64,000 nt of DNA from a virus: positions 60,251 through 124,250 of the IMG/VR virus record IMGVR_UViG_3300015371_000002, one strand, 5' to 3'. Below are positions 2,101-25,055 of the stretch, piece after piece (position 1 is the first letter of the stretch; every line of letters begins with the position of its first letter). The notes beneath the pieces were generated by a model. That model saw only the letters and a list, made by a program, of their open reading frames with translations. It was not told the origin of the DNA and made no database searches. Made by a program: the position numbers and the translations under genes.

Positions 2101-2102
2101 GA

Positions 2103-2270
2103 CTATTCGGCCTCCAGCCGATCAGCGGTGCGCTCCATTCCGCAGGCGCCTTCGAACAACCGCAGCATGTTGGCCGCCGCGGTGATCGCTTCCCCACGGC
2201 CAAGCCCCTTCTCGATCTTGACGTAGGCCTGCAATTGCTTGTGCAGATGCTCGAGGCTCTTATCGGTCAT
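2103..2270 (-). CDS. hypothetical protein (55 aa)
   Basis: Hand-translated MTDKSLEHLHKQ...RLEAE; fills the gap between neighbours exactly. Confidence 0.55.
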   Translation of the reverse strand: MTDKSLEHLHKQLQAYVKIEKGLGRGEAITAAANMLRLFEGACGMERTADRLEAE

Positions 2271-2921
2271 TCACATCTTCCATTCTTGTAGCGCAACCTC
2301 CACCGAGGGCACGAACCGAAACTCTTTCACGTCGGAAAACCGCGTAGCGTTGGCGACATCGATGCCCATGTTGGACAGCGTCCGGGCGGCGATGGCGAAC
2401 GAGCGGCGCCAACGGCGAAAGTTGGCTTCTCCGGGATTGTTCGCCCCAGACCATTCGTTGCGGCCATACCAGTGCGGGCCTGAGCGGGTATGCACGTCGA
2501 GACCGACGAACGCGATCTGTCGCGCACCGAACTGCACCGCCAAATTTAATGCCTGGAACCCGCTATTACCGCCTGATCCGACAAACCCCGGACGCTCCAA
2601 CAGGATGTCGTCCTTGTGCATGTCGATCTTGATCAGATGAATGTCGGGATACTGCTCGTGCAGCAGTGGGTCATACGCGACCTTGAGGCCAGAGAACTTC
2701 GGCATGCCAATATTGGCGTGCCACCATGGTCGATCGCAGCCATAAATTACGTCCGGCTTGCAGAGCCGCCACGACTCCTTGATCGCTATAACCCTTACGC
2801 GCTGTTTCTGTGCCAGGATGCTGAGATCAACATTCTTGGCGGACGGGCCTGACGCTACGATGACAGCGACGCAGCCGCGCCAATCGGGAAACCACGCAGG
2901 CTTATCGATGCCGTCGAACAT
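2271..2921 (-). CDS. DUF115/MptE-like or sialyltransferase-like Rossmann protein
   Basis: IVASGPSA, GGNSGFQALNLAVQFGARQIAFVGLD motifs. Confidence 0.6.
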   Translation of the reverse strand: MFDGIDKPAWFPDWRGCVAVIVASGPSAKNVDLSILAQKQRVRVIAIKESWRLCKPDVIYGCDRPWWHANIGMPKFSGLKVAYDPLLHEQYPDIHLIKIDMHKDDILLERPGFVGSGGNSGFQALNLAVQFGARQIAFVGLDVHTRSGPHWYGRNEWSGANNPGEANFRRWRRSFAIAARTLSNMGIDVANATRFSDVKEFRFVPSVEVALQEWKM

Positions 2922-5578: not shown

Positions 5579-5624
5579 TGGTGACGACCCCTTCGTGTTC
5601 TGCGGCCGGCTGATCCGCTTTCGG

Positions 5625-7067
5625 TCAATCTGCTGCCGACAGAACGGCACCGCCTCCCAGCGCTTTGGTCAGATGCCACGCAGCCATGGCGATGTCGGCC
5701 TCATCGAGGTCGCGCTGCTGTGCGGCTGGGCTTCCCGGCGCGCCCGGTCCGGATGGCGGCGTAAGTGCGGGCTGAAGGGGGGCAGGCGTTGCCGGGGCTG
5801 ATTCTCGCTGCGTCAGAACGTCAATGGGCCAATACTGCTGCTGAAGGAATGGAACATCGCCACCTTTGACCGGACGCATGTCGAACCGTGCGCGCGCTTC
5901 GTTCGGCGAGAAGATCGCCCGCTGCACGCCTTCGCCGATGGTCTTGACCTTGGTGGCGGTGTCCATGCGCAGTAGGCCATCGTCGATGTCGAACTCGGTG
6001 CCGTAAATATGTCCGGTGACCTCGGTTAGACCGAGGCCCTCGTCCAACAGCAATTCGATGTTCTCAAAGCGTGCCTGCAAGCACTGGCTATAATACGACA
6101 GGTTCAGCGCTTCCACGTTGTTATACGTCGGTGCTGCTTGCGTCACGAGAAACGCGGGCACGTGGAATGCGGAGCAGATGGTCTCGGCGGTCCACCTCAG
6201 TTGCTCGATGAGTTGGGCATCGACCGGATTGATACTCATCCGCTCGAACTTCATCCCATCGCCGAGGATCGCCACCCGCCCGACGTTCTCGCCCGCGTAG
6301 TTCGCCTGCCATTTGGCTTTGACGCGATCGGCGGTTTCCTGCGAGATCGGCCCCGGCGCGATCAGCATGCCAGATGGCACCGCCTGATTGCGCGACGTCT
6401 CGATCTGCTGCTTCTGCGCCTCAAGCCCCTGGAGCGCCGACAGGCCACACGCAGTGAGCGGCGAAATACCGATCAGCGGATGGAACACCGCCGACATGCG
6501 GTCGTGGATGATTTCCGACGCGGGAACAACCTGGCTGTCTTCTTCGACGCCGGTCAAGCTGTCCGCGTAGAGTTGGTAATAGACCGCACCATCGGGTGCG
6601 ACCAGCACCTTGGTGCGTGCTGGGTCAAGCACATACATGGCAATGACCACGCCACGACCGTCGCGCTGCTTCAGTATATACGTATTCCCCCACGTAAGGA
6701 GGCTATAGATCCAGCACTCCAGGAATTGAATTCGCGTTTGGTAGCGATTTGGCTTGCGCAGCACCGGGCTGAACGCGGGCGCGGAAGTCTCTTCCCAGAT
6801 GCCGGTGGTCGGATCCTGCTCGACCAGTTTGATACGAATTTTGGATATGTCCTGGGCAATCAGCGAAAGGCACGAATAGACGGCGTGATGGCGCAGGGAG
6901 GTTTCCTGCGTCATGCCCATGTTGCGCTGCCAGGCGCCCATGAACGGTTCCTGGATAGTCGGCCAGAACCACTGGGAGAACGTCGACATCGGCGGCACCA
7001 TCAGGCCGGTGGGCGGTGATGCCTTGGCGATGCCGTTGCGCGTGATGTCGAACCCGAGGATACGCAT
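5625..7067 (-). CDS. phage portal protein, HK97 family
   Basis: AVYSCLSLIAQDIS, LRKPNRYQT, EIIHDR, GISPL, ICSAFHVP, SPNEARARFDMRPVKGGD; likely start MRILGF at 7067. Confidence 0.92.
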   Translation of the reverse strand: MRILGFDITRNGIAKASPPTGLMVPPMSTFSQWFWPTIQEPFMGAWQRNMGMTQETSLRHHAVYSCLSLIAQDISKIRIKLVEQDPTTGIWEETSAPAFSPVLRKPNRYQTRIQFLECWIYSLLTWGNTYILKQRDGRGVVIAMYVLDPARTKVLVAPDGAVYYQLYADSLTGVEEDSQVVPASEIIHDRMSAVFHPLIGISPLTACGLSALQGLEAQKQQIETSRNQAVPSGMLIAPGPISQETADRVKAKWQANYAGENVGRVAILGDGMKFERMSINPVDAQLIEQLRWTAETICSAFHVPAFLVTQAAPTYNNVEALNLSYYSQCLQARFENIELLLDEGLGLTEVTGHIYGTEFDIDDGLLRMDTATKVKTIGEGVQRAIFSPNEARARFDMRPVKGGDVPFLQQQYWPIDVLTQRESAPATPAPLQPALTPPSGPGAPGSPAAQQRDLDEADIAMAAWHLTKALGGGAVLSAAD

Positions 7068-7860: not shown

Positions 7861-10221
7861 TCATACGTATTTGGCGTAGTCAATCCACTGCACGACGCCA
7901 GTGCGACGCTTGCGCCAATTGATCTCACGCTCTGCAAGAACCGCGGTCATATTTTCCTGCCACAGTGAGCGGTAAACAGTAGAGGCAGAGATCGGGCTAT
8001 CGGGCGCGCTATCGAACTGCAGCGAAGCCTGGTTGCTGCTGTCGATCGTCACGTTGCCGTCGTCGGCGAGCAGAATTTCGCCCGGCAAGATGAACGCGAT
8101 CATATAGCCATCCGTCGGCGAACCACCGGACGACGGCACGTTCGTGCTGGTGATGACGCGGAACCCGGCCAACGTGCCGCCACCGGCGGTGATGTCGGGG
8201 AACTCGCGTTGTCCAAGCGTATTCAGCATGAGGCTGAACGCGATCGCCTGGTTGACGTGCATGACCCACGTGCCGCCAGTCATGTCGAGATCCAGCGCTG
8301 CCATCGTGGTCAGCACCGTGCGGATGTTGGCGCGCGCGGCGTCGGCATCCGTGCCTGTTGCGGCAACAGCAGTAACGCCGTTGGTCAGTGACGCAGGCGA
8401 AGGACCGCCTGAACCCGTGCCGACGACCTTCGTGCTGTCGAGCAGGTCGGTGTCGAGCTTCTTGGCAATCGCTGCGACCATGTCCTGACGGATCATCGCT
8501 TCCAAACTTGGATTTGAGAACCGCAGGCTTTCGTTGGTGAATGCTACGAGCGCGGCAACCTTCGCGAAGGTCATCGTGATCGTATCAAACGCCGCGCTGC
8601 TCATGGGTTTAGACGATCCCTCGCCGACCCAATACGCTGTCGAACCGGATGACATCAATGGGACACGAATGTTAAATGGCACACGACGCATACCGCCAGC
8701 GAGCTTGTCGAGAATAGTCGCAGCACGAACCAGATCGATAAATTCACTGGCCATATACTGCAGCTGCACGAGGGGTGACGCCCACGTGGTATCGTAAGTG
8801 TTCGCCGGAGCGACTGCCGCCTTCAGCACCGTTGTGCCCTCGGCCGCAGCAAAGTTCAACACTTGTGCTACTTCCGGCGTGTCCTTCCATGCCTCACGCT
8901 GTGCGATCTGCACCGCCTGCTGCAAGTTGCCCTTCGACATCGCCTGTGCGGCAATGTAGCGAACGAACGCGGTGCCCTTCTCAAGCGGCGGACGCTTGAC
9001 CTGGACAACGGACGAAGTCTGGCGTGGCGCTAGCGACTGACCGGCATTGTAACCGATACGGTCGCCATCGACTGCTACCGCGGCCGAGATGTTCAGCTTC
9101 TCCTGCTCGCGTAGACGGGTCAGGTGCTTGTCAATCGACTTAATCTTGTCGTTCAGTTCGTCGTATTCGGTCTCCTGCTCCTCATCGAGCGTTGAGCCGT
9201 CTTCCGACGCCTTGCTCATCAGCTCGGACATCCGTGCTGCGTGTGCGGTTCGCGTCGATGCGTATGCGGCAATATCTTCCGCAATAGTTTTGGTTGCCAT
9301 TGGTGCCTCCCGGCTTGTCTGGCGGTTAACGGTCGCCGTGACGCCGGCGGGGTTCTGCTCAACACGCGGACTCTGCTTCTGGCCGGTCGCGGCCTGCAGC
9401 GCTTGCGTATCGAGGGATCTGATAAGCTGGATGGTGGCTTCCGATTGGGCTGGCACGGTCACGAGAGACAATTCATGCCAGTTCCATTCTTTAAACCGGA
9501 TGCCACCACCCTTAATCATCTCATATTGGTCTTTGATCGGCGTGAAACCGATGCTGACGCCTTTGACGAGTCCAGCGCGCACTGTCTGCCACGCCTCATC
9601 AACGCGATCCTTAAGTTTCCCGGGTTCCTCAACCTTGGCGATGCGTGCCTGGAACGAGATACCGCGGTCGGTCTTAGTTACGTGGGTAACCGTTCCGACC
9701 GGCTGGCTGTGCTGGTGCATCCATAGCAGCGGGATACTGACCGGCGTCGCGTATTTCGCACCCATGCTTTCCACGACGTCACCGACATGATCGACGGATG
9801 GCGTGGTAGCGATGCCGGAGATCATGCGTTCGCCTTCGTTGAGGCCCTTGACCTCCAGCGTTGTCGGCATCCATTTCATTTCGACCGGCGCGGAATGCAT
9901 CATCGGCGCGTCGGGCATCGATGGCTTGCTATCCATCCACGCCATCATGCAGGTTTCCTCGCTATCGCCGCCTTCGACGCATCTTTCCAAGAACGAAACC
10001 ATATCCTCCCCGCCACCGGGTGTGCAGCACGTCCCTGCCACATCGCGCTTTGGCGCCGGACCGTTCGCTGCGGACCCGTGATGTTCCCGCCAAAGATTCA
10101 GACATACGGCAATCCGTTGCCTGTTCGTAGCGAAATCATTATTGACCGTTGCATCGCCCATGCAGCGTGCCATCCACTGCTCGTTTGTCTCGCCTGATGG
10201 CTTAGGTTTTGGAAGCGGCAT
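7861..10221 (-). CDS. HK97-family prohead protease fused to major capsid protein
   Basis: Protease motifs (ISGIATTPSVDHVGD, LLWMHQH, GVSIGF, ELSLVTVPA), coiled-coil delta domain, capsid motifs (AYWVGEGSSKP, SLWQENMTAVLAERE); start MPLPKP at 10221. Confidence 0.92.
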   Translation of the reverse strand: MPLPKPKPSGETNEQWMARCMGDATVNNDFATNRQRIAVCLNLWREHHGSAANGPAPKRDVAGTCCTPGGGEDMVSFLERCVEGGDSEETCMMAWMDSKPSMPDAPMMHSAPVEMKWMPTTLEVKGLNEGERMISGIATTPSVDHVGDVVESMGAKYATPVSIPLLWMHQHSQPVGTVTHVTKTDRGISFQARIAKVEEPGKLKDRVDEAWQTVRAGLVKGVSIGFTPIKDQYEMIKGGGIRFKEWNWHELSLVTVPAQSEATIQLIRSLDTQALQAATGQKQSPRVEQNPAGVTATVNRQTSREAPMATKTIAEDIAAYASTRTAHAARMSELMSKASEDGSTLDEEQETEYDELNDKIKSIDKHLTRLREQEKLNISAAVAVDGDRIGYNAGQSLAPRQTSSVVQVKRPPLEKGTAFVRYIAAQAMSKGNLQQAVQIAQREAWKDTPEVAQVLNFAAAEGTTVLKAAVAPANTYDTTWASPLVQLQYMASEFIDLVRAATILDKLAGGMRRVPFNIRVPLMSSGSTAYWVGEGSSKPMSSAAFDTITMTFAKVAALVAFTNESLRFSNPSLEAMIRQDMVAAIAKKLDTDLLDSTKVVGTGSGGPSPASLTNGVTAVAATGTDADAARANIRTVLTTMAALDLDMTGGTWVMHVNQAIAFSLMLNTLGQREFPDITAGGGTLAGFRVITSTNVPSSGGSPTDGYMIAFILPGEILLADDGNVTIDSSNQASLQFDSAPDSPISASTVYRSLWQENMTAVLAEREINWRKRRTGVVQWIDYAKYV

Positions 10222-10286
10222 AGCAGTGGTTCTCCAGGGCTTAGAGGCTTGACGGCTGAGCTTAGGGACTGGCATGCTTAGCGTTA

Positions 10287-11360
10287 ATGAACTCAACGCC
10301 TGACAACCAACGTGTCTGCATAAATTGCGGACGGCCCCACTTCCCCACCAGAAAGGGTAGGTGCAAGGCATGCGATTATTACTGGCACACCTACGGCATA
10401 GAACGACCGGAGGTTATATTTAAGTCTCCAGTAAAAGGGCATTTTGCTGACCGAGATGGTCGCTCATGCCCTAACTGTGGGGTCCTATTTAACCCGATTA
10501 AGTTCTATCGGCGCGAGGGAAAGTTCCTATTTGCGGGGCAGTTGCGCTACTGCACAAGAGAATGTGGAAACGCCTATCGACTACGTCAAGCGAAGGGAAA
10601 ACCAAGCAAACTGCGCGGAAAGCGACTGGTCAAGGAACCCACAAGCGGGTTTGCATGTCGTGGGTGCGGCATTCTATGGACGCCGATCTATTATCGGCGG
10701 GGGAGGCCGATCCGCTTACAGCGAAGGTTAGCAGCAAGAGCGTTATGCTCCGATGCCTGTCGGAAGATCATCCGCATACAATCAGAGCCTCAACGATTAG
10801 CTAGCGTTCCTAGGGGCCCTAAGCACCGTTTCTGGAAGGGCGGAGTTGGTGCCTTATACCGACGCGGACTGGGATGGGCCAAGAAGACCGAGACCGTTCG
10901 TAGAAAACAGAAATACAAGTGCGCAGAGTGCGGCAAGTCTGAGAGCGAACTTGGCAAGGTTCTTGATGTGCATCACAAGGTTCCCTTCCACAACTTCGCC
11001 ACTGCGCGTGATGCCAACGTCTTTTCTAATCTGGTAGGCTTGTGTCGATCGTGTCATGCAAAGGCTGACGCAGCCATTGTGTCACGGCAACTAAGCCTAG
11101 GTCTGGTTCTTGCTGGTCGCGAGTTTCGCCCGGGGAAGGCCCGAGGAGGGCGTTGCGCTTCGGCCAAACTGACCGAAGCCATGGTCATAGAGATGCGCCG
11201 CAGACGGGCTGATGGCGCTACTACAAGCTATCTAGCTAAGCTATTCGGTGTTTCCCCCTCTGTTTCCCAATATGCCTGCTCAGGCAAAACGTGGAAGCAT
11301 GTCGGCGGACCGCTAACTAGCGGTAGGACCTATGCTAAAGCCGTAAATCCCTCTGGATGA
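10287..11360 (+). CDS. HNH endonuclease with Cys zinc-finger repeats and C-terminal HTH
   Basis: CAECG...LDVHHKVPF...NLVGLCRSCHAK; several CxxC; AKLTEAMVIEMRR HTH. Confidence 0.85.
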   Translation: MNSTPDNQRVCINCGRPHFPTRKGRCKACDYYWHTYGIERPEVIFKSPVKGHFADRDGRSCPNCGVLFNPIKFYRREGKFLFAGQLRYCTRECGNAYRLRQAKGKPSKLRGKRLVKEPTSGFACRGCGILWTPIYYRRGRPIRLQRRLAARALCSDACRKIIRIQSEPQRLASVPRGPKHRFWKGGVGALYRRGLGWAKKTETVRRKQKYKCAECGKSESELGKVLDVHHKVPFHNFATARDANVFSNLVGLCRSCHAKADAAIVSRQLSLGLVLAGREFRPGKARGGRCASAKLTEAMVIEMRRRRADGATTSYLAKLFGVSPSVSQYACSGKTWKHVGGPLTSGRTYAKAVNPSG

Positions 11361-14830: not shown

Positions 14831-15185
14831 CCGCTGCAGATAGCAGACTGATGGCGCGCGCGATGGTGACGCACGATGCAACGTTGCGTTGCTGCGACCA
14901 TCAGGTAGGCTTGCGGGATGCGGTGGATATGCGTCGTTAGTATGGTCTGGGCTGGGGCCAGCCTTGTTGTGATGCTTGGGATGCTGGTGGCCGTGCCGTT
15001 CATCCACGCACGCCAGAAAACGCGCCGGGCACCAGACCAAGCCAGTATCAGCGAGGCGCCGCGTAAGCCCGCCTAGGCGTCAGCAATCAGCATCTACGCC
15101 ACTTGTGCCCTGGCGTGGTGCGCTTAGATATGCGGTGAGCTGGTAACCCTGCCGGTATTCTTTCCAATAATCCTTCAGATACCTG

Positions 15186-15214
15186 TTGACAGATACCCTG
15201 GGTATACCCATATT
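15186..15214 (+). promoter_or_regulatory. sigma70-like promoter with ATACC-N3-GGTAT in the spacer
   Basis: TTGACA-N17-CATATT; spacer gataccctgggtatacc. Confidence 0.45.
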
Positions 15215-16173: not shown

Positions 16174-16434
16174 ATGACGTATCAGGAAGCCAAGGCACGG
16201 CAAGCAGCGCTTGAGGCTAACGTAAAGCTGGCCGGCGCTGCATTGCGGCAATTCCCCGCAAACGGGCCGATGGGTCTAACGCCAGACTCGGTAAAAGCGT
16301 CGCCAGAGTTTCGGACGGCGAAGGCTTGCTTCGATCGGGCTTTCTCGCAATTAGCCGCGTTTAATGCGGCTTTCGTGAAAACGTATCGCAAGGAAGCGGC
16401 CGCAGAACGGAAAGCTCGGAGAAATGGGAGATAG
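16174..16434 (+). CDS. hypothetical protein (first gene of the small-gene island)
   Basis: GAGG upstream; GPMGLTPDSVKASPEFR; hairpin at ~16113-16153. Confidence 0.65.
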   Translation: MTYQEAKARQAALEANVKLAGAALRQFPANGPMGLTPDSVKASPEFRTAKACFDRAFSQLAAFNAAFVKTYRKEAAAERKARRNGR

Positions 16435-16708
16435 GCGAATGTTATGCGACCTTGGCAACCCCATGCCTAAGGGGACGCTGGTTACCGTCAAGACAAACAA
16501 CGGTGGCAAGATTACTGCCCCATTGGCGATGGCTTATCGTCCCTCTTATCGCGCCGTGATTGACGTTAATGGTGACGACGTTGTCATTCCAGCCACGCGC
16601 ATAACGTCAATTCAGAAGGAATTGCCACATCCATGCAAGCGATGCGGTATGATCGTTCCCGATGCTCGCGGCATCGTCCATTGCTGGCACCGCGAGTGCC
16701 CAGAGTAA
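16424..16708 (+). CDS. hypothetical protein with C-terminal CxxC..CxHxxC
   Basis: Overlaps the previous stop codon. Confidence 0.5.
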   Translation: MGDRRMLCDLGNPMPKGTLVTVKTNNGGKITAPLAMAYRPSYRAVIDVNGDDVVIPATRITSIQKELPHPCKRCGMIVPDARGIVHCWHRECPE

Positions 16709-16904
16709 GGAGTCAGTCATGACACGCCATGAATCCGCATATGTTTGGGAGATCGAACGTCTGCCGCACGAATTGCCGCAGGAAATGCCGCGCGACGAAC
16801 CAATGCTGCAGATTGTCCCCCATGAACGCGAGATCGATCACACACCAGCCGCAGTGATTATCCGGCCACCGATCGATCAACACGGAAATTTTCGTCCGTG
16901 GTAG

Positions 16905-16942
16905 GGATTACCGCTTGACGATACCCCACGGTATCCTTATGT
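16905..16942 (+). promoter_or_regulatory. promoter/operator repeat, copy 1 (38 bp)
   Basis: GGATTACCGCTTGACGATACCCCACGGTATCCTTATGT identical to 17965-18002; TTGACG-N17-TATGT with GATACC-N4-GGTATC in the spacer. Confidence 0.8.
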
Positions 16943-16971
16943 AGGGGGCAACGAAGCGGATGGATACACAG

Positions 16972-17130
16972 ATGACTACCTACCGCGTCACAGCCCAGAG
17001 CTACACCAGCAGCCAGCGGATTGCGAAGCTAATCACCAGTGACACTGAGCAGTCCGCACTACGGCAAGCTAACAAGGAGCTCGATGGCGATTGGTATGTT
17101 CTGGATATCAAGCCGGTATCTAAGGCATAG
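16972..17130 (+). CDS. hypothetical protein (52 aa)
   Basis: Hand-translated MTTYRVTAQSY...KPVSKA, directly after the promoter. Confidence 0.55.
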   Translation: MTTYRVTAQSYTSSQRIAKLITSDTEQSALRQANKELDGDWYVLDIKPVSKA

Positions 17131-17163
17131 GCGCCCAAACAAGCAAACCCAAAGGCAACGACA

Positions 17164-17460
17164 ATGACAAAGCATCGCACCCGAAAGTCACGAATTGAGA
17201 TTATGGTTGTTACACTGCCGGCATACTGGGCATGCGCAATAGTCAATGGCGATTGCAGCAGTATGGATGATACGGAAGTTTCCGACATGGAGCGTGAGCT
17301 TGAAGCGCTATCTGCTGAGGGCTGGTCAATTATTGACGTTGCTCGCGATAAGAGCGGGGAGCCCGACGAGTCGCGCTTTACATCGTCCTTCCGTCTGTAT
17401 GGCGGCAATTGCGCTGGTGGCGACGTATTGGATTACGTGGCTATTCGCGACAAGCGCTAA
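17164..17460 (+). CDS. hypothetical phage protein
   Basis: TLPAYWACAIVNGDCSSMDD; co-oriented in the island. Confidence 0.6.
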   Translation: MTKHRTRKSRIEIMVVTLPAYWACAIVNGDCSSMDDTEVSDMERELEALSAEGWSIIDVARDKSGEPDESRFTSSFRLYGGNCAGGDVLDYVAIRDKR

Positions 17461-17540
17461 GGCGGACACATAGCAGCGTTACGGCGCTGCTATAGCCTGC
17501 CTTCGCAGGAAACATAACAAGAGCAACCCAAGAGGTTACA

Positions 17541-17924
17541 ATGAGAACTAAGCACACAGAGCCGCTGTCCAACTGGTGGACCGGAACGGAATCGGCGTGG
17601 GAGCGGTTGCCCTATGACGAACGCAAGGAATTAGCATTTGCGGCAACGGGTTGTGAAGTTGCATGGCCACGTTGGCCCGCGCCAGTTCACTGCTTGCATA
17701 CAGACTGCCGCATCCGGCGCGGCGAAATTCTGCCGATCGTGAAGCTTAACGGCACCATGCGGTATGAAGCCCAAACCGGCTGGTGGCGCTTTATCGAGGA
17801 CCGCAATCAACTGGCGCGGATATACCGCCACTACCGCCGGGAAGCACGCAAGGTCGGCGAGTATGATCTATGGAAGCTTGGCGCTGTTGGTGTGGCTTTG
17901 TTAGGCGTTTCGCTTTCCAAGTAA
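17541..17924 (+). CDS. hypothetical protein
   Basis: GAGG RBS; island packing. Confidence 0.55.
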   Translation: MRTKHTEPLSNWWTGTESAWERLPYDERKELAFAATGCEVAWPRWPAPVHCLHTDCRIRRGEILPIVKLNGTMRYEAQTGWWRFIEDRNQLARIYRHYRREARKVGEYDLWKLGAVGVALLGVSLSK

Positions 17925-17964
17925 CGGGAGTAGCAACCGCCGGCCGAAACGCGATTAAATAGTC

Positions 17965-18002
17965 GGATTACCGCTTGACGATACCCCACGGTATCCTTAT
18001 GT
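17965..18002 (+). promoter_or_regulatory. promoter/operator repeat, copy 2 (38 bp)
   Basis: Exact direct repeat of 16905-16942. Confidence 0.8.
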
Positions 18003-18037
18003 TGTGGGTAACGCAGCAAACCCAAAAGGAGACAACA

Positions 18038-18397
18038 ATGGAACACTGGGAAACGGTCTGGCAATTCAATACCGCACGCTACACGGTGGCGCTGTCTGTC
18101 AGCGACGAAGAGTCAGATCCTGCGGACAGTTTCAGTTTTGAGGATGATGTCGAATATGCTCGTGAAGGCGGTTGGCATTGGTTCTGCGCACGGGTGCAAG
18201 TCATCTTCCGCGACGAGAACAACCCGAAGAACTGGGCGGTGCGGCGTGACTTGGTGTTAGGCGAGGACTTCATCGGCGGATGTAGCTATGAAGACTTAAA
18301 GTCCTTCAGGTCTGACGGCTATTTCCGCGACATGGTGGCGGAAGCCATTAGCGAGGCGCGCGGCAAGCTGTCTCGGTTGTGCAGTAAGGCAGCATAG
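18038..18397 (+). CDS. hypothetical phage protein
   Basis: AAGGAG RBS before MEHWETVW; LGEDFIGGCSY...DGYFRDMVAEAI. Confidence 0.65.
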   Translation: MEHWETVWQFNTARYTVALSVSDEESDPADSFSFEDDVEYAREGGWHWFCARVQVIFRDENNPKNWAVRRDLVLGEDFIGGCSYEDLKSFRSDGYFRDMVAEAISEARGKLSRLCSKAA

Positions 18398-18406
18398 GAG
18401 AGGACA

Positions 18407-18649
18407 ATGCACGCGCTTTCAGTAATCCGCTATCCTTCGGGGCGCTACGGCTTCGTCGGCAGGGTGCCCGCTGTTCTGGCTTATGAGGGCAGCGAAGAAG
18501 ACATGGAAACCGCTGCCCACTACGGGCCGGGAATTGCACGAAGGATTGCGAGCAGGAACGGCCGCGAATTCCGCGCGCTCTCATGGGCCACTCGCGAGGA
18601 TGCGCTTGCTGCCGCTGCTGCCCACGGCTTCGACGTCCATAACGGCTGA
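18407..18649 (+). CDS. hypothetical protein
   Basis: GGAGAGG RBS; YPSGRYGFVGRVP. Confidence 0.6.
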   Translation: MHALSVIRYPSGRYGFVGRVPAVLAYEGSEEDMETAAHYGPGIARRIASRNGREFRALSWATREDALAAAAAHGFDVHNG

Positions 18650-18757
18650 CCATGCTGTAAGGTGCACCTGTGCGGTGTCACCTTGCACAATGGCCAGAGT
18701 GACCATTGACGCGCCATACAGAGGGCGCGACGGCACATAAACGGAAGGCAAACCCAG

Positions 18758-19339
18758 ATGTCAGCGACCAACAAGTGCCCATGTTGTGGGCGCGCCATGC
18801 CGCGCCAGCGGACAGCGACAAAACCTAAGCTAATGACGGGCGAACAGTTCTTTGAAGCTCGCATGGTAGCCTGTCGCGCGATTGCGGCAGACCTAGGCGA
18901 AAATTGGCATCTAGTCGAGGGTGCAAGCTACTGGGCCACGATTCCCGCCAGGCTGCGATCGTTCAAAACCGCACGCGGCACAAAGATTAGGTGCAACCGT
19001 GAGGTAAGGTTGCCAGCGGGCCGGTATTGGCCGGCGGGCTGTCTGCCTGACGGTTTAGTCGTGGCTCCGCCGTATGCCAGAGACAAGACTCCGCCAGAGG
19101 TGGTGCGGCGCATGGCGGCGACACGCGAGCTTGGCAGGCTGGAACGTGAATATTCCCACGATCGCAGCCGTGCATTGCACGTCAACGTTCGTTGGCATGA
19201 CTCAAACTTGAGTCGCTACTACACGCCAGAGGATAGGGCAGCAGATATACAACGGGCTTGGGACGTTCGCCGCGAGCTTTCACAGGCTAGACGCGACAGG
19301 GCTCTGGTCGCTGATGATACCCTGCCTATGGCAGCATGA
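18758..19339 (+). CDS. hypothetical protein with N-terminal CPCCG
   Basis: 193-aa ORF in the island. Confidence 0.55.
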   Translation: MSATNKCPCCGRAMPRQRTATKPKLMTGEQFFEARMVACRAIAADLGENWHLVEGASYWATIPARLRSFKTARGTKIRCNREVRLPAGRYWPAGCLPDGLVVAPPYARDKTPPEVVRRMAATRELGRLEREYSHDRSRALHVNVRWHDSNLSRYYTPEDRAADIQRAWDVRRELSQARRDRALVADDTLPMAA

Positions 19340-19401
19340 CATGACGGCGTGCTGCGCTCACGTGGCAGGCTACCCCTCTCCAATCGAAGGAGATTAGTAA
19401 G

Positions 19402-19647
19402 ATGGACAAGAAAAGAACAAAGACGGCATATGGCGAATATCGTCCAGATTTGGGTCGCTTCATACTGCGCCCAGTGAAGCGCATTCCATTTATGGCGCCA
19501 ATTCCTTGCGCGGTGTTCCCTTCGATACAAGAAGCCGAGCAGGCTGCCGACGCCCATGGTTATCGAGTTATCTGGGACAAGTCACCCACTCCAATCGAAG
19601 GGGGCCAATTCCGGGCTCCCTGTCCAATCGAAGGGGATCGAAAATGA
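19402..19647 (+). CDS. hypothetical protein
   Basis: Motif copy just upstream of ATG. Confidence 0.55.
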   Translation: MDKKRTKTAYGEYRPDLGRFILRPVKRIPFMAPIPCAVFPSIQEAEQAADAHGYRVIWDKSPTPIEGGQFRAPCPIEGDRK

Positions 19648-19853
19648 ATCTCAGTGAGAGAACCGCGTTGATCAATCGCATTGCTAGCCTGCCCGGACCC
19701 GTCACGCTTGACGGAAAGCCGGCGCTGATTTGCGGACTGACCAGCGACTTCCTAACCGTGGTCACTATGACCTTACCGCGAGTGTCTTGTCAGTTCTCGT
19801 GGGAAGCGGTGGCGCGATTGCTCGACAAGGGCGGAGCTTTCCGTTCCTTCTGA
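19644..19853 (+). CDS. hypothetical protein
   Basis: MNLSERTALIN after motif copy 19624. Confidence 0.6.
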   Translation: MNLSERTALINRIASLPGPVTLDGKPALICGLTSDFLTVVTMTLPRVSCQFSWEAVARLLDKGGAFRSF

Positions 19854-19910
19854 CCAGTCTCGATCCTGTCCTCGCTTCGGTAGCATAACTCCAATCGAAG
19901 GAGCTTTGAA

Positions 19911-20069
19911 ATGAAGACCTATACACTTAGCGTCCTTGTCTCAGTCGACCTAGCGTTTTCCAACGACGAAGCGGCGAAAGAATGGGCGGAAGAGCACACT
20001 GTTTTCGATATGCTCGACAAAGGCGCTGGCGTTGGTGAAGTCGTCATTACTCCAATCGAAGGGGATTAA
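19911..20069 (+). CDS. hypothetical protein (52 aa)
   Basis: Hand-translated MKTYTLSVL...VITPIEGD; bounded by motif copies at both ends. Confidence 0.55.
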   Translation: MKTYTLSVLVSVDLAFSNDEAAKEWAEEHTVFDMLDKGAGVGEVVITPIEGD

Positions 20070-20070
20070 A

Positions 20071-20271
20071 ATGCTCACTCTCAGAGAGGCCGACATACTC
20101 CGCGCCTACTGGCGCCAAACCTACGCCGTAGTGCGCGTCCGTCGGGATGGCACAGTTGAGGCGAAGCAGTGCCCATCATCGCCGTGGGCCATCCTGGAAA
20201 CGCCGGAACAAGCGCGCCTTAGCGCCGCCGAGCTCTTGGCCATTCCGGGCAATCGAAGGGGATCGAAATGA
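20071..20271 (+). CDS. hypothetical protein
   Basis: MLTLREAD after motif copy 20052. Confidence 0.55.
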   Translation: MLTLREADILRAYWRQTYAVVRVRRDGTVEAKQCPSSPWAILETPEQARLSAAELLAIPGNRRGSK

Positions 20272-20458
20272 CAATGCATGATCTAGGGGACGTGTTTCAA
20301 CACGCGTTTCACCACGAACGATCCCCGCGAGCGAGCGCGGCGGAGGTCGCGACATTCTGCGGCATGGTGGCCGCTGCGCTGCTGGTGACGTGGTTCACCA
20401 CGGGCCACGCGTTGCTTATGGCGATGCGGTAGACCCATTCCAATCGAAGGGGGCCAAA

Positions 20459-20701
20459 ATGGCCATGAAACGTCAGCGCCTATGGACCGTATGGGGACAA
20501 GATCCCCTGCGCCCAGGCAATCGCATGTTCAAGACCGAAGCTGAAGCATTGGCCTATGCGGCCGTGCTGGCGCCGATATCTAGCGGATGGGCGATGGTTC
20601 AGGATCATTGGACGCGCGAGATCAGGACCGTGCGGGCGATATACCCCACTCCAATCGAAGGGGAGCGAAAATACCCTGTCCAATCGAAGAATACCGATTG
20701 A
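20459..20701 (+). CDS. hypothetical protein
   Basis: MAMKRQRLW after motif copy 20440. Confidence 0.5.
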   Translation: MAMKRQRLWTVWGQDPLRPGNRMFKTEAEALAYAAVLAPISSGWAMVQDHWTREIRTVRAIYPTPIEGERKYPVQSKNTD

Positions 20702-20726
20702 CAGATACCCTGCGGTATACTATATT
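20698..20726 (+). promoter_or_regulatory. near-consensus sigma70 promoter with ATACC-N4-GGTAT operator
   Basis: TTGACA-gataccctgcggtatac-TATATT. Confidence 0.75.
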
Positions 20727-20763
20727 GCAGGCAACAACAATTCAGCAAATCCAGAGGCAACCA

Positions 20764-21330
20764 ATGACCGAATATAGCAATCCACGCTTACGCGCCGTGA
20801 TCGACAATTGGCCCATCGGCAGCAAGCGTTGCACCGCAACGTTTATGATCGAGCGCAACGGCAAGGGAGAGCGCGGAGTTCGCACAACGGTTGGTGCACC
20901 CAAGAAGCTGACCTATGCCCGCAAGGCGCGCATTGTCGACGGTGACGATGGGCGAACGTATATCGCCGAGCTGTCGGCATACGGTTTCGTCTCAATTATG
21001 CGCGGCGACATGAAGTTTCAGCATGAAGCGGTGTTCGATACCGACCCGCGGTTTCGGGCGATCATGTCGCTATTCTCGGAGGGCCGACAGATGACCTGCT
21101 TTCCCGTTCGTGAGCCATCACTCGCAGCGTTAACCGACGCGCCAGTGTCTTTCCGCTACGGATCGAACAAGCGGCGCATCCTAGTCGATGCGTTGACGGC
21201 TCGGGCCATCCTGGCCGTTGTCGCTGCTATCAGCGATGAGAACCGCGAGAAGCTAGAGCGTATGATTAAGTCACCATCCGGACTTGCGAAAGTTGCCGAC
21301 TTTGCCATGAGCAAGTGTTCGATAGCTTGA
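20764..21330 (+). CDS. hypothetical protein
   Basis: MTEYSNPRL with GAGG RBS, downstream of the promoter. Confidence 0.65.
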   Translation: MTEYSNPRLRAVIDNWPIGSKRCTATFMIERNGKGERGVRTTVGAPKKLTYARKARIVDGDDGRTYIAELSAYGFVSIMRGDMKFQHEAVFDTDPRFRAIMSLFSEGRQMTCFPVREPSLAALTDAPVSFRYGSNKRRILVDALTARAILAVVAAISDENREKLERMIKSPSGLAKVADFAMSKCSIA

Positions 21331-21362
21331 CTCTCGCATGTCCAATCGAAGGGGATCATTCA

Positions 21363-21608
21363 ATGGAACACGTCACGCGATATGTCGGCACCTATGTGAA
21401 CAGCAACGGCGAGCGAACCTTAATGTCGGCAGCACAAGGACGCCATACCTACGCTTCGGCTGAAGAAGCGCAGGCCTGGATCGACGCTGTTACCACGAAC
21501 AACAGCGCCGATACGCTGAGGCAGGTCTGGGGCGATAACCCGCAATTCGAGGTTCGCCCCTGCCCCTGCTACCCGGGGCACTTTGACCCGCAAACTGTAT
21601 GGTTCTGA
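21363..21608 (+). CDS. hypothetical protein
   Basis: MEHVTRYVG after motif copy 21342; C-terminal CPCYPGHFDP. Confidence 0.6.
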   Translation: MEHVTRYVGTYVNSNGERTLMSAAQGRHTYASAEEAQAWIDAVTTNNSADTLRQVWGDNPQFEVRPCPCYPGHFDPQTVWF

Positions 21609-21673
21609 CGGCGCGGGCGCCCCATTCATAGCGGGGCGCCTCTCCAATCGAAGGAGCGAAATAGGAGGAAATC

Positions 21674-22136
21674 ATAGGCTTAGATATGTATTTGGAAAAG
21701 CGCCCATTACGTGAAGAACTGGGACAACATGGGACCGGAAGAGCGGCATCAGGTAACGGTGCTAAAAGGTGGCAAGCCGACGACCATTAAGCCGGAACGC
21801 GTCAGTTACGTGATCGAGCAGGTTGCATACTGGCGTAAGGCAAACGCTATTCATCAGTGGTTCGTCGAACACGTGCAGAATGGCGAAGATGACTGCAAGC
21901 CATATGTATGCGACTCTGACAAGCTGAAGGAACTATTGAGCGCAGTGGATGCGGTGCTGAAATGCCGCAAGAAGGCCAAGGAACTATTACCCACACAGGA
22001 AGGGTTTTTCTTCGGCAGCATCGAGTATGACGAATACTATCGGCAATACCTGAAGGACACCAAGCGGATGCTTGAGGAGATCCTTGCCGAACCCGATGCA
22101 GACATCAGTGAGTATGTTTATCAGTCTAGTTGGTAA
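21674..22136 (+). pseudogene. phage protein of the MGLDMYL...YWRKANAIH...YQSSW type with damaged 5' end
   Basis: AGGAGG then ATA-GGC-TTA-GAT-ATG-TAT-TTG (GLDMYL) in one frame; one extra base near 21704 shifts into the frame of ORF 21711..22136. Confidence 0.6.
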
Positions 22137-22162
22137 CGCCGCTCCAATCGAAGGAGGCCAAA

Positions 22163-22351
22163 ATGATCGTCCGTAGTCCAGACCCGCGTTTGGTTCGTAA
22201 GGCGCACAAGGCGCTGATGTGGTCGCGCGATTATCAGAGCGGCGAGGCCACGCGACCAGATCCGCTGGCATTCACGCCGGAGATGGAGCGCGCCACGCAG
22301 CAGTGGATTGCGCACATGCTGCGTCTTGGCATTGGGAAGGAAACGCGATGA
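22163..22351 (+). CDS. hypothetical protein
   Basis: MIVRSPDP after motif copy 22144. Confidence 0.5.
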   Translation: MIVRSPDPRLVRKAHKALMWSRDYQSGEATRPDPLAFTPEMERATQQWIAHMLRLGIGKETR

Positions 22352-22788
22352 AAACCGATGACGATGATGCGGCCATGCCAAAGAGCATGTTCGCCTTGCC
22401 CACGCACTTGCGGGACCTGCTGGACCGTTACGCGAAGGAGCGCGGGATCAAGAAGCCCGAAGCTGTGCGCCATATCCTGGCACTGTTCTTCGCCAGCCAA
22501 GAGGACGGACACCTGTCCAGCCAGGACGCGTTGGCGCGCATGGCGGAGGTGGCCGGGCAACAGGCTGGCAACCGCAACGCCCGCGAGCATGGCCGTGAGG
22601 CATGGTCAGGCGAGGATTTCCGCATAGCCGGCGAGGCAGCGGGGCGGATGGCGGCACGGTTGGCAGAAATCTGGGCCCCACTCCAATCGAAGGGGGCCGA
22701 ACCAGATGCTCTTACCTCGACCGATGTTGCCGTGGAGATTAGTGACGGTTTGGCTACCCCGAGGGTGGCCCGGCGGAAACGCGCGTGA
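22348..22788 (+). CDS. RHH/CopG-like DNA-binding protein
   Basis: SMFALPTHLRDLLDRYAKERGIKKPEAVRHIL; ATGA overlap with the previous gene. Confidence 0.55.
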   Translation: MKTDDDDAAMPKSMFALPTHLRDLLDRYAKERGIKKPEAVRHILALFFASQEDGHLSSQDALARMAEVAGQQAGNRNAREHGREAWSGEDFRIAGEAAGRMAARLAEIWAPLQSKGAEPDALTSTDVAVEISDGLATPRVARRKRA

Positions 22789-22816
22789 TCGCAACCCCAC
22801 TCCAATCGAAGGGGGC

Positions 22817-23404
22817 ATGGAGGAAAGCATGACTACCGAGCGGCGGGCGCAGCAGCACGAGCAAGTCCTAAGGCATTGCCTGCGAGCGCTAGCTGGCGAT
22901 TTGCTGCGTGCCATTGCGGGCGGTAGCGCCAGTAAGATTGTCGAACGCATTGGCGAGGCCAATGAGGCGATAGAGAATTGGTTTGATGGACGGCAGTGCA
23001 TGCCATTCGGCCAACGCACGGTCGAAGCTATGCTTTGGTTAGAGGAAGATCGCGACGGCTATGATGATCACAGAAAAGTCGAGCACGACATGATCATTGC
23101 CGCACTGCGAACGGTATCGGCTCGCATGCTACCTATGCCGCATATTCGTAATGATTGGTTTAAGTATGAAGACATCAACGCTCTAGCTGAGCTGCGCAAG
23201 AAGCGGCGAGAGCAGATGGAAAGAAAGTGGGCAAAATGGCGGGCGCGCTCGCCAGAGCACAAACAACCGGCAAATGATGTCTTACCGAAAGCCAACAAGG
23301 CGAAAGTCAACAAGACTGAACGACGGATCGCAATCCGAAAGCAAGCGCGGCAGGCTCAGAGAAGTCGTATGGGCATCGCCGCCACTCCAATCGAAGGAGA
23401 CTAA
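22817..23404 (+). CDS. hypothetical protein
   Basis: Starts after motif copy 22802; ends TPIEGD (motif copy 23387). Confidence 0.6.
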   Translation: MEESMTTERRAQQHEQVLRHCLRALAGDLLRAIAGGSASKIVERIGEANEAIENWFDGRQCMPFGQRTVEAMLWLEEDRDGYDDHRKVEHDMIIAALRTVSARMLPMPHIRNDWFKYEDINALAELRKKRREQMERKWAKWRARSPEHKQPANDVLPKANKAKVNKTERRIAIRKQARQAQRSRMGIAATPIEGD

Positions 23405-23536
23405 ATTTGGCATGTCCTGACATGGGCTGGCCGGCTGTCATTGGCGGGCTGGGGGCTCTCTGGGCAGTCGTGGCCCTGATGCTGGGGCTGGCCTGGTTGT
23501 TGCACGAATGACCCACTCCAATCGAAGGTGACTGAA

Positions 23537-24085
23537 ATGCGCCTCGTGCACTACGCGTCGGAGCCGTTTGGCGAGTTGGAGGAATTCGGTGAACCACCCG
23601 AGAAAGACTGGCGCACCTATTTCTACAAACCGCATGGTTTGTGGGTATCCGACGAAGATGCCGAGGGTGGCTGGCGTGAGTGGTGCATCGACAACCGGTT
23701 CAATCTGGAGTGCCTCACCCACGTGCATGATGTGGTATTGGCGCCCGATGCCAAGGTGTTGGTCATCAGCAACCCTCGTCGGCTCGACCAGTTCACCGCC
23801 GATTTTCGCCTACCGTCCTATTACGACAAGAAGCTTGCGGACGATATGCGGAGCTTCGTTGCAAGTTACGGCCTCGGATGGCGCGAGGTGGCGAAGATCT
23901 ACGACGGCCTGATTATTACGCCATACCTCTGGGAGCGGCGGCTCGATCCGACGTGCATGTGGTATTACGGATGGGATTGCGCCGGCGGTTGCTTATGGCA
24001 CACGCGCGCTATCCAGTCGGTCACGCTGCGTGAGGTCGTGCCAATCCCTGAGACCACTCCAATCGAAGGGGAGTCAAATGGTTGA
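23537..24085 (+). CDS. conserved hypothetical phage protein
   Basis: KPHGLWVS...WREWC...YDGLII...WYYGWDCAGGCLW. Confidence 0.7.
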   Translation: MRLVHYASEPFGELEEFGEPPEKDWRTYFYKPHGLWVSDEDAEGGWREWCIDNRFNLECLTHVHDVVLAPDAKVLVISNPRRLDQFTADFRLPSYYDKKLADDMRSFVASYGLGWREVAKIYDGLIITPYLWERRLDPTCMWYYGWDCAGGCLWHTRAIQSVTLREVVPIPETTPIEGESNG

Positions 24086-24281
24086 GCCTGACAGCATCGA
24101 GGTGGACGGCGTCTACCGCACCATGGAGGCGTTCTGGACGGTGACCGAGATCGTCGATGGTAAGGTGGACCTGCGCCGTGATGACGGAAAGCTGGCGCGG
24201 TTTGGCTTGGCGCACTTCGCACAGATCGTGGAACGTAGGGTTACTCCAATCGAAGGGGGCCAAAACAATGGACCACGGTGA
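24078..24281 (+). CDS. hypothetical protein
   Basis: MVEPDSIEVDG after motif copy 24059. Confidence 0.55.
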   Translation: MVEPDSIEVDGVYRTMEAFWTVTEIVDGKVDLRRDDGKLARFGLAHFAQIVERRVTPIEGGQNNGPR

Positions 24282-24534
24282 TGGCAATATGCAGCGCTGG
24301 AAGCGTGGCGCGACGAGAGAAGAATTACGCATGTCTCTCGTGGGTTTAATGGAGAGCATTAACCATGATGCCAAGGAGGGCATCGAAATCTGCGTTCGGC
24401 TAAGCACCAAGGAAGGCTGCGAAGGTCCGGGCACCCTAGGCACCGACTATTTCATCAAGATTATGCAGGCGGTTACGTGGATTGATGATCTCGTGGGGGA
24501 TTTGGAGCTTGCCGAAGAAAGGCTGATCCCATGA
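24268..24534 (+). CDS. hypothetical protein
   Basis: MDHGDGNM after motif copy 24246. Confidence 0.5.
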   Translation: MDHGDGNMQRWKRGATREELRMSLVGLMESINHDAKEGIEICVRLSTKEGCEGPGTLGTDYFIKIMQAVTWIDDLVGDLELAEERLIP

Positions 24535-24743
24535 GCCCGGCGGTTCTGGTGCTGCTCTTCACGTTCGCCAGCGGCGCGGGTGCCGTAGCGACGGTCGACA
24601 TGCCGTCTATGCAGATATGCAAGGCTGCTGCGAACGAAGCCATTGTCGCGCATGAACGCGATACGTCAGCGCGGTGCATATCACGCGTCGCAAAATAATC
24701 TACTTGCGTTCCTCGAGGGGTGTCCAATCGAAGGGGGCCAAAA

Positions 24744-25055
24744 ATGGCGGGACTAACCAGCTATGCACGGGACAAGCTGCTGGCAGAATTGCAATCGGGC
24801 ACGATGACATCCGGCGCTGTCTCGATCGACGTCGGTCATTTGCCCGCAGGTTACGTCAGGTTCGATAGCTGGCCCAAGGCGCCCGCGCCCGTCCATGGCT
24901 TGCTGACCGATCCGGAGACCGGCCAGTCGTGGCGGATCAGCTTGAATCAGGTTACCAAGCAGTGGGAAATTGTGGACGATCCCAGTCCAAGGATCAGCAA
25001 GGCAGCCCTGGAGGCGAAGATCGCCGATGCAGCATTGCGAGCGGCCAAGGAATGA
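24744..25055 (+). CDS. hypothetical protein
   Basis: MAGLTSYARD after motif copy 24724. Confidence 0.6.
   Translation: MAGLTSYARDKLLAELQSGTMTSGAVSIDVGHLPAGYVRFDSWPKAPAPVHGLLTDPETGQSWRISLNQVTKQWEIVDDPSPRISKAALEAKIADAALRAAKE

Follow-up and report, generated by a model that had tools for sequence, protein, structure and literature searches.

A dense array of start-proximal repeats in a small-gene island of a phage with a likely Rhizobiales host

The small-gene island

The virus represented by IMG/VR record IMGVR_UViG_3300015371_000002 has a sequence of 124,250 bp that is rated 92% complete, and its right half (60251–124250 of the record) constitutes the 64,000-nucleotide window analysed here, to which all positions refer unless stated otherwise. 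Between positions 19380 and 24734 the window harbours 19 copies of an 11-nucleotide motif, CCAATCGAAGG, all on the plus strand, which punctuate an island of small genes and mostly stand immediately before a start codon. The island is a rightward array adjoining leftward packaging genes, and the structural genes of the phage (portal, capsid, TerL and tape measure) lie outside it.

Gene boundaries follow our own gene model. By this model the island comprises 18 genes, g1 to g18, encoding proteins of 34–191 amino acids (aa). The first six (g1–g6, 19402..20701, plus strand; 81, 69, 52, 66, 54 and 80 aa) are each headed by a motif copy. A sigma70-like promoter at 20698..20726 (TTGACA-17-TATATT, 11/12; plus strand), with a short palindrome between its hexamers, is predicted to divide the island into two transcription units. 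The first gene after this promoter, g7 (20764..21330, plus strand, 188 aa), has no motif and is preceded by a leader of its own, GCAAATCCAGAGGCAAC. In the remainder of the island (g8–g18, 21363..25055, plus strand) a copy heads g8, g9, g10, g12–g16 and g18, and g11 and g17 are without one. Among the island proteins, only g9 (phrog_7971) and g14 (23537–24085, plus strand; phrog_8582) could be assigned to a family in Pfam and PHROGs, the remaining matches being weak. The proteins of g1–g6 match no Pfam or PHROG family, and an Atlas look-up of g15 returned only scores below 0.9.

The promoter at 20698 is one of four sigma70-like promoter/operator copies, at 15186, about 16915, 17975 and 20698, within repeats that extend over 15179–15214, 16905–16957, 17965–18017 and 20691–20726. 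These copies hold a palindrome, GATACCC..CGGTAT, between the hexamers, and three of them then share a similar leader, GCAAACCCAAAGGCAAC. The palindromes are probably operators of one repressor. The early genes upstream of the island (16174–19339) have ordinary, dissimilar Shine-Dalgarno (SD) sequences.

Distribution and conservation of the motif

Seventeen of the 19 copies are exact and two deviate at a single position (GCAATCGAAGG at 20249 and CCAATCGAAGA at 20680), all within 5.4 kb. Across 100 dinucleotide shuffles, the mean number of matches with up to one mismatch was 1.44 and the maximum was 6; the observed 19 was never reached, and a chance origin of the array is thereby ruled out. In the whole record the exact motif occurs 17 times in the forward direction and never in reverse, and a reversed control pattern is absent from both strands (0/0). 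A position-weight matrix (PWM) scan of both strands scores the 19 copies at 18.0–32.6 bits, the next best sites reaching 16.0 and 10.5, and it reveals no antisense partner of the motif in the genome (top reverse-strand score 8.9). A first-pass annotation of the window had described 19 co-oriented copies, confined to about 5.4 kb of the plus strand and not seen elsewhere, and had proposed a scan of the entire genome; over the full 124,250-bp record the description holds, with no further copy on either strand.

The conservation extends beyond the 11-mer to a near-invariant core of 14 nucleotides, T-CCAATCGAAGG-R-G, in which the T at -1, the R at +11 and the G at +12 are each present in 18/19 copies. 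A less conserved cc(a/t)c precedes this core, and an A-rich spacer, often GCCAAAA or ATCGAAA, comes after it. With the common anti-SD sequence, only the GAAGGRG of the motif would be expected to pair, which leaves TCCAATC unaccounted for.

Outside the studied phage, the longer forms of the motif are found as isolated occurrences. An 18-mer was located at five loci, all single copy, in a genome collection holding one genome each of 185,579 species, and at 19 single-copy loci in metagenome contigs, none of which has a second copy of the core. A 16-mer gave 12 single hits in viral contigs, one of them (L107) in a close relative, and no multi-copy contig; a 14-mer occurs in at least 118 stretches of viral contigs, and all 80 that are listed are single hits. 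Thus, among the matches listed for the viral, metagenome and genome collections, there is no other contig with several copies. Since the genome and metagenome matches of the 18-mer are all single, a host repeat, an uptake sequence or a Chi-like genomic signal is unlikely. Within the papers searched, the motif string occurs in four, none of which concerns phages by its title.

The arrangement of the island was also recovered in independent rhizosphere-metagenome assemblies at 99% identity or more, one of the runs being possibly the source sample of the record. One metagenome contig of 1,572 nt (23315–24886) spans five motif copies with one letter differing. These independent contigs rule out an assembly artefact. 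A blastn search of the island against 50,697 phage records yielded no match.

The motif and its start codons

Thirteen of the 19 copies are followed by a start codon (12 ATG, one TTG) at 8–11 nt past the 11-mer: at 8 nt in six cases, 9 nt in four, 10 nt in one and 11 nt in two. Counted from its last G, the GAAGGRG of these copies lies 6–9 nt from the start, that is, in the SD position. Because of this spacing, GAAGGRG is close to certain to act as the SD at 13 genes. The earlier statement that most copies sit just upstream of a start is therefore upheld.

The thirteen differ in how they relate to the preceding gene. Intergenic copies include those at 19380..19390 (g1 starts 11 nt on), 19891..19901 (g3, 9 nt on) and 24724..24734 (g18, 9 nt on). 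Others closely follow a stop codon, as at 20440..20450 (g5 stop 7 nt before, g6 start 8 nt on), 21342..21352 (g7 stop 11 nt before, g8 start 10 nt on), 22144..22154 (g9 stop 7 nt before, g10 start 8 nt on) and 23518..23528 (g13 stop 6 nt before, g14 start 8 nt on). The rest are translated as part of the upstream gene: 19624..19634 is read CPIEG in g1 (g2 start 9 nt on), 20052..20062 TPIEG in g3 (g4 start 8 nt on), 20249..20259, the first mismatch copy, NRRG in g4 (g5 start 8 nt on), 23387..23397 TPIEG in g12 (TTG start of g13 9 nt on), 24059..24069 TPIEG in g14 (g15 start 8 nt on) and 24246..24256 TPIEG in g15 (g16 start 11 nt on).

Two further copies head a gene at which a second canonical SD, missed by the earlier annotation, precedes the start. 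The copy at 21644..21654 is followed by AGGAGG before g9, and the same copy stands before the g9 homologue of a relative, G001; the copy at 22802..22812, which lies 13 nt behind the g11 stop, is followed by GGAGG, and g12 starts 16 nt past the 11-mer. As for g9 itself, in G001 the homologue begins at an ATG 6 nt past AGGAGG and reads MGLDMYLEKRHYVKNWD (L226:5960–6010, against 21674–21720 of the window). In the phage studied here that ATG is ATA, and an extra C (CGCCCATTAC vs CGCCATTAC) shifts the frame, so that g9 can start only at GTG 21711; the change relative to G001 is a frameshift or a homopolymer error.

The remaining copies are orphans or doubtful. The first-pass annotation had listed four without a start behind them. 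This stands for three: 19591..19601, in the 3' end of g1, where it is read TPIEG, 33 nt before the next copy; 20651..20661, in the 3' end of g6, also read TPIEG; and the second mismatch copy, 20680..20690, where g6 ends, separated by 8 nt from the -35 hexamer of the 20698 promoter. It is less certain for the fourth, 22683..22693, which is read LQSKG in g11 and has an ATG of doubtful use (22706) 12 nt on, in the frame of g12 but overlapping g11.

In all, a copy stands at the head of 15 island genes out of 18. The exceptions are g7, the first gene after the 20698 promoter, and two genes, g11 and g17, that begin in an ATGA overlap with the stop before them. Since the genes lacking a copy are either promoter-first or ATGA-coupled, and since the genes upstream of the island use other SDs, the motif is where translation starts for those internal cistrons of the island that are initiated independently, and for nothing else. 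The earlier proposal of a start-associated translational element is accordingly supported, both by the SD spacing of 13/19 copies and by the restriction of the motif to genes in need of an initiation site of their own. The stop codon of the upstream gene falls inside the copy, behind it or up to 13 nt before it in 11 of the 15 gene-heading copies.

Owing to the close packing of the genes, ten copies also form part of a reading frame: seven are read (T/C)PIEG, two (L/V)QSK and one NRRG, and nine are intergenic. The C-terminal TPIEG(D/E) and LQSKG readings reported earlier are thereby recovered, with NRRG in addition. We take these peptides to be a by-product. A C-terminal TPIEG peptide as the selected feature is unlikely, given the nine intergenic copies and the three read in other frames.

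Gene gain and loss at motif copies

Comparison with relatives was among the checks proposed for the motif, and it uncovered two indels whose breakpoints lie at motif copies. One close relative is a 4,331-bp fragment (L107/L138) with 92% DNA identity in the terminase and with homologues of g13, g15, g16, g17 and g18. It is devoid of g14: where the studied phage has copy, g14 and copy (left edge at the copy 23518, right edge at 24059), L107 has a single copy, GCAATCGAAGG, and the homology blocks that flank g14 overlap by exactly ten motif bases. After the copy that ends g15, L107 has about 190 extra bases and then g16 with an ordinary SD, and g18 is preceded by a third copy, CCAATCGTAGG. Among the homology blocks of L107, two have their left end at 24060 and 24722, and right ends fall at 23528 and 24263. 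A second strain, L223, passes from g15, which has an ordinary SD, through one copy, CCGATCGAAGG, to g18, and is without g16–g17, which in the studied phage are flanked by the copies 24246 (left edge) and 24724 (right edge). Both indels are hence bounded by two copies here and represented by one copy in the relative. G001 (L224/L226), with a terminase of about 75% DNA identity, is more distant than L107 and L223. It retains the copy and the second SD before g9, and its homology starts at 21642, the 5' edge of that copy; its homologues of g16–g17 and g18 have ordinary SDs. Eight homologues of g18 (P0001–P0008) were recovered as well, one of them on a 28-kb contig.

Altogether, 6 of the 15 homology-block ends in the island fall inside a copy, by our own count and with BLAST ends being approximate, and the copies cover about 7% of the island. 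In the metagenome contigs, one of run X1 departs at the 3' edge of the copy 24246 (24263) into an insertion of the L107 type. Deletion joints between copies, which the earlier annotation had suggested looking for, did not appear: none of the three joints listed for contigs of four metagenome runs (depth about 2–6) links two copies. One run-X1 contig does join 16904 to 17965, with the loss of 1,060 bp between the two most similar, 53-nt promoter/operator repeats, 38 nt of which are shared.

Start-proximal repeats of other phages

Repeats in comparable positions, but of different sequence, are present in other phages of the same group. G001 carries six co-oriented copies of CCGTGTTTACGGGG in 2.3 kb, and both the rest of its 40.8 kb and the studied phage are free of it; the repeat forms a hairpin, UUCCGU-GUUU-ACGGGG (6 bp, GUUU loop), and each copy lies 8–40 nt before a start. 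In more extended form it reads (A/G)CCCC(A/C)TTCCGTGTTTACGGGG and stands before small genes at L226:5461–7725, two copies being in tandem 21 nt apart. The G001 contig thus holds an unrelated repeat of its own together with one copy of the window motif before g9.

Twelve viral contigs encoding a homologue of g7 were screened for k-mer repeats, and four have same-strand start-proximal repeats (L238, L239, L236 and L234). The repeat AGGGGAAACC occurs in seven copies in L238 (5247–8105) and five in L239 (18–2376), with an ATG 0–3 nt behind in 6/7 and 4/5 of them, respectively. L236 (164–2976) has five copies of a GGGC-GARA-GCCC hairpin of the GNRA type (AGACGGGCGArAGCCCCCAAC), then an SD and an ATG, and L234 (3501–6457) has four copies of ACTAAAGGAG. 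Among the other contigs of this screen, L233 contains a tandem array of another kind, and four-copy words were flagged in L237 and L242–244. A broader k-mer screen (L131–L199 and L223 upward, 69 TerL loci included) flagged 21 loci, of which L145, L172, L176, L227 and L224–226 were inspected. The prophage L145, whose terminase is 53% identical, has five co-oriented copies of CCCCTCTCGAGGGCAT in 1.2 kb, with a 4-bp stem and a CUCG loop; they lie on the minus strand (20114–21329 in reverse-complement coordinates), and one is about 35 nt before an SD and ATG. Because five related contigs and L145 have different co-oriented repeats, start-proximal repeats are common in this group of soil phages, and their sequence is lineage-specific each time.

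Possible RNA structure and other signals

In RNA, the CUCC on the 5' side of the motif can pair with the GGRG of the SD around a loop, AAUCGAA. All four pairs can form in 14/19 copies, with stem energies of -3.5 to -4.8 kcal/mol. Position +11, a G or A facing an invariant U, fits RNA pairing and fits an SD equally well. A hairpin that masks the SD is therefore possible at the motif, if weak.

Searches for other kinds of signal at the copies were negative. Rfam covariance models gave four matches (E 0.42–3.7), all far below the gathering score and none at a copy; inverted repeats of at least 12 nt do not recur beside the copies; and none of nine promoter-like and none of 20 terminator-like sites coincides with a copy, the stem being without a T run. 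Host proteins of the CsrA or Hfq type recognise GGA or ARN patterns, and such binding was dropped as an explanation since most copies read AAGGG. A likeness to the T-arm of tRNA was likewise dropped on inspection. Pfam scans covered about 165 open reading frames (ORFs), 120 in two sets and about 45 singly, and the majority have no family match. The two sets, 64 further ORFs of the window and 56 of the left arm (25 of 28 families listed for the latter), gave no hit to an RNA polymerase, sigma, integrase or RNA-binding family; the five largest left-arm ORFs were compared with PHROGs only.

Comparison with known systems

The earlier comparison with the start-associated repeats of mycobacteriophages proves apt. 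In the passages that describe them, the start-associated sequences (SAS) of Cluster K mycobacteriophages, known since 2011, are 13-bp repeats in 11–19 copies, in one orientation in the non-structural half of the genome, 3–7 bp before starts; they contain AGGAG plus conserved bases without explanation, and their function is given there as not known (PMC3203893). It is still given as unexplained in the corresponding passages of a 2025 survey (PMC12699233). The motif described here shares the defining traits, being an asymmetric repeat in many copies that occupies the ribosome-binding position with an SD core, in one orientation and among non-structural genes. The likeness to the Cluster K elements as described extends to the copy number, the shortness of the repeat, the nearly uniform orientation, the preference for ATG, the heading of genes of unrelated families and, probably, the conservation of bases beyond those that pair with 16S RNA. 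The differences are also clear. The Cluster K consensus, GGGATAGGAGCCC, is unrelated to the motif; the 17-bp inverted-repeat pair called ESAS has no counterpart at the copies here; the copies here are packed in 5.4 kb of 124 kb and ten of them are read as coding; and the Cluster K host is an actinobacterium, the host here probably an alphaproteobacterium.

Repeats of this kind are not restricted to Cluster K. SAS-like or start-proximal repeats are described for Microbacterium phages of Clusters EF, EC and EG (PMC7302621), and a 26-bp repeat stands before eight genes of Citrobacter phage Mordin (PMC4611695). As in the present case, each group, to the extent that these descriptions go, has a motif of its own, in 8–12 copies located immediately or 14–30 bp upstream of the starts of small genes without assigned function, and Mordin shows that start-proximal repeats also occur in phages of Gram-negative hosts. 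The sequences differ, and the EG and O motifs are palindromic, whereas the motif here is asymmetric.

A second parallel is offered by the PeSLs (promoter-early stem-loops) of T4-type phages, described as composites of a sigma70 promoter and a terminator stem-loop (PMC2839356, PMC4122927). Like the motif, these are, by that description, regulatory cassettes that recur between small, non-essential ORFs where the genome is plastic, with repeat-bounded indels between relatives. In contrast, the motif has neither promoter hexamers nor a terminator and is a ribosome-binding module. Cassettes resembling PeSLs were observed in L227 (minus strand, reverse-complement 1881–7019), where six promoter-like elements, TTGACG-17 nt-TAAAGG, about 1 kb apart, are each followed by a GC-rich leader able to form a stem.

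Other phage systems illustrate how one protein can read a signal near the SD or between cistrons and so control a whole set of genes, as with the targets of T4 RegB and RegA and the early RNase III sites of T7. No such protein was recognised here; the motif is much longer and more specific than GGAG, and its hairpin is far too short for RNase III. Integron cassettes are co-oriented, promoter-less small genes with a recurring site (attC, an imperfect palindrome of 57–141 bp) and variable gene content. The island resembles them in its co-oriented small genes separated by a recurring site and in a content that varies between relatives. It differs in that no integron integrase was found among the ORFs scanned with Pfam, there is no long imperfect palindrome, and the site stands at the 5' end of each gene, where it doubles as SD.

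Interpretation of the motif

The explanation preferred here, which is given about an even chance of being right, is that the motif belongs to the start-associated sequences, being a standard module for starting translation that acts in mRNA, is spread and homogenised by cassette exchange and possibly adopts a fold for translational coupling. Such a module would be used by internal cistrons in two early operons made up of small accessory genes. The 5' half of the module, (C)UCCAAUC, would fold back on the SD in the mRNA, CUCC pairing with GGRG and leaving the loop AAUCGAA. As the upstream stop codon is usually inside the module or a few nucleotides from it, ribosomes that complete the upstream gene would open the hairpin and ease initiation. 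Genes would enter, leave and move within the island as units of module plus ORF, and exchange at the module would both spread and homogenise it and provide each newcomer with a working start site. Cassette shuffling would on this account be a consequence and a maintaining force and not a separate machinery. That the near-identity of the copies is due to such movement is partly borne out by the sequence comparisons with relatives.

Several observations weigh against this explanation. A suitably spaced start is missing at four copies and a separate SD follows two, so the module cannot be solely an SD. The orthologues of g15, g16 and g18 in relatives use ordinary SDs, and the 5' half of the motif is therefore dispensable for expressing these genes. 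The invariance of the seven non-SD bases TCCAATC in 17–19 of the 19 copies is not accounted for. As to the fold, the hairpin is weak and five of the 19 copies cannot form all four pairs. A covariation set of 24 copies (19 from here and five from relatives, with only one cell holding a double change) has pairing in 88.5% of its cells, a level equalled by 171 of 500 column shuffles, so that there is no covariation support. Moreover, the copies with a perfect GGAG stem are not those overlapped by upstream ORFs, which misfits a simple coupling design.

The conserved non-SD half could instead have no role in expression and reflect only recombination, the copies evolving in concert and offering short homology for cassette exchange in the manner of PeSLs. 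The two motif-to-motif indels against close relatives, the ten-base overlap of the L107 blocks and the block ends concentrated in the small part of the island that the copies cover all speak for this, as do the orphans 19591, 20651 and 20680, which resemble empty junctions, the presence or absence of the motif before orthologues according to the phage, and the use of a different repeat in each lineage. Short direct repeats do recombine naturally in this region, as the 16904–17965 joint of run X1 illustrates. Yet copies occupy almost all gene boundaries in the island, so that any indel of whole genes would be copy-bounded whatever its cause, and it does not follow that the motif causes recombination. 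The population contigs contribute no joint between two copies, an identity of 14–20 nt is short for homologous recombination, the only recombinase recognised among the Pfam-scanned ORFs is an IS1595-type transposase, and the strict SD spacing shows selection on translation. Recombination as the sole role is accordingly rather unlikely. The cassette junction put forward in the first-pass annotation survives as an observed effect, in the two copy-bounded indels and the block ends, which do not establish the motif as a cause; no dedicated recombinase was recognised.

It is unlikely, too, that the motif is the operator of a dedicated trans-acting factor, a phage- or host-encoded RNA-binding repressor or activator or an endoribonuclease that would read the AAUCGAA loop with its context and switch, process or shut off the island genes jointly, as a regulon of the T4 RegA/RegB type. 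Such a factor would explain why the loop and the non-SD bases never vary within the genome whereas stem-flanking positions do, why the motif at corresponding places differs between related phages, which co-evolution of factor and site would lead one to expect, and why there are orphan copies without genes, two of them just before a promoter; the absence of the motif from the rest of the phage and its single 18-mer hits in the 185,579-species genome set are also in keeping. The loop varies, however, in close relatives (CCGATCGAAGG in L223, CCAATCGTAGG in L107), and the same genes lack the motif in other phages. That no RNA-binding, nuclease, RegA or RegB family was recognised counts weakly, most ORFs having no Pfam match. 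A signal in DNA, be it a polar protein-binding site or a promoter read by an RNA polymerase or sigma factor specific to the phage, fits least and is very improbable. The copies are co-oriented, lie upstream of genes and are conserved over some 18–20 nt, respects in which promoters of single-subunit RNA polymerases are similar. Against this, among the families listed, no RNA polymerase or sigma family turned up in the 120 ORFs of the two sets or the approximately 45 scanned singly, four sigma70-like promoter/operator copies already punctuate the region, a transcript begun inside the motif would have its SD at the extreme 5' end, ten copies lie inside coding sequence, and a DNA site has no need of a fixed 8–11 nt to the start codon.

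Genomic setting and host

The record contains a tailed-phage gene set, with portal, protease-capsid fusion, large terminase and tape measure. The terminase is nearest to those of phages of Roseibium, Agrobacterium and Bradyrhizobium (44–46%) and the relaxase to those of Mesorhizobium plasmids (49%), and owing to these relatives an alphaproteobacterial host of the Rhizobiales type is likely. The relaxase, of the MobA/MobL type and fused to an AAA_30 helicase (42717–45512), and a Toprim/AAA_25 primase-helicase (50505–52316) are encoded in the same record as the full set of virion genes, and no integrase family was recognised in the record among the ORFs scanned by Pfam. With relaxase, primase-helicase and virion genes together, the record may be a phage-plasmid.

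Among the virion genes, a single ORF of 836 aa (7861–10371) combines a prohead protease domain with an HK97-type capsid domain behind it, and the portal gene is adjoined by the gene (2921–5650) for a 909-aa protein that contains collagen triple-helix repeats. The left arm (genome 1–60250, loci L127–L130) encodes a transposase of the IS1595/ISXO2 type, and many genes for glycosyltransferases, methyltransferases and NDP-sugar epimerases are interspersed among virion genes there. Within the island, g14 has no close relatives in viral contigs, and its 91 tblastn matches among the collected phages all belong to those infecting Mycobacterium, Microbacterium, Gordonia and Nocardia (37–43% identity). 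The distant homologues of g14 are thus borne by actinobacteriophages, whereas the rest of the record indicates an alphaproteobacterial host.

Biological significance

The motif is a further example of the start-associated sequences known from phages, and no new mechanism is demonstrated. As an instance of that class the island is unusually clean, with 19 near-identical copies in 5.4 kb. It also follows a clear rule of use, in that every independently initiated internal cistron carries the motif and no promoter-proximal or ATGA-coupled gene does, and there are natural relatives that have gained or lost genes exactly at the copies or use other motifs. The combination of these copies, this rule and these variants makes the ideas of a translation module and of an exchange junction directly testable. 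The island further extends start-associated sequences to phages of probable Rhizobiales hosts, and the motif marks the true starts of very small genes (34–80 aa) that gene callers tend to miss. A bolder and improbable proposal is that the invariant UCCAAUC half, with the AAUCGAA loop, serves as the address of a phage-encoded RNA-binding translational switch or a sequence-specific endoribonuclease turning the 15 motif-headed genes of the island on or off as one regulon, with a separate pair of factor and address in each lineage. If that were true, start-associated sequences would represent a general, programmable form of post-transcriptional control, and an island as dense as this one would be well suited to a search for the protein that reads them.

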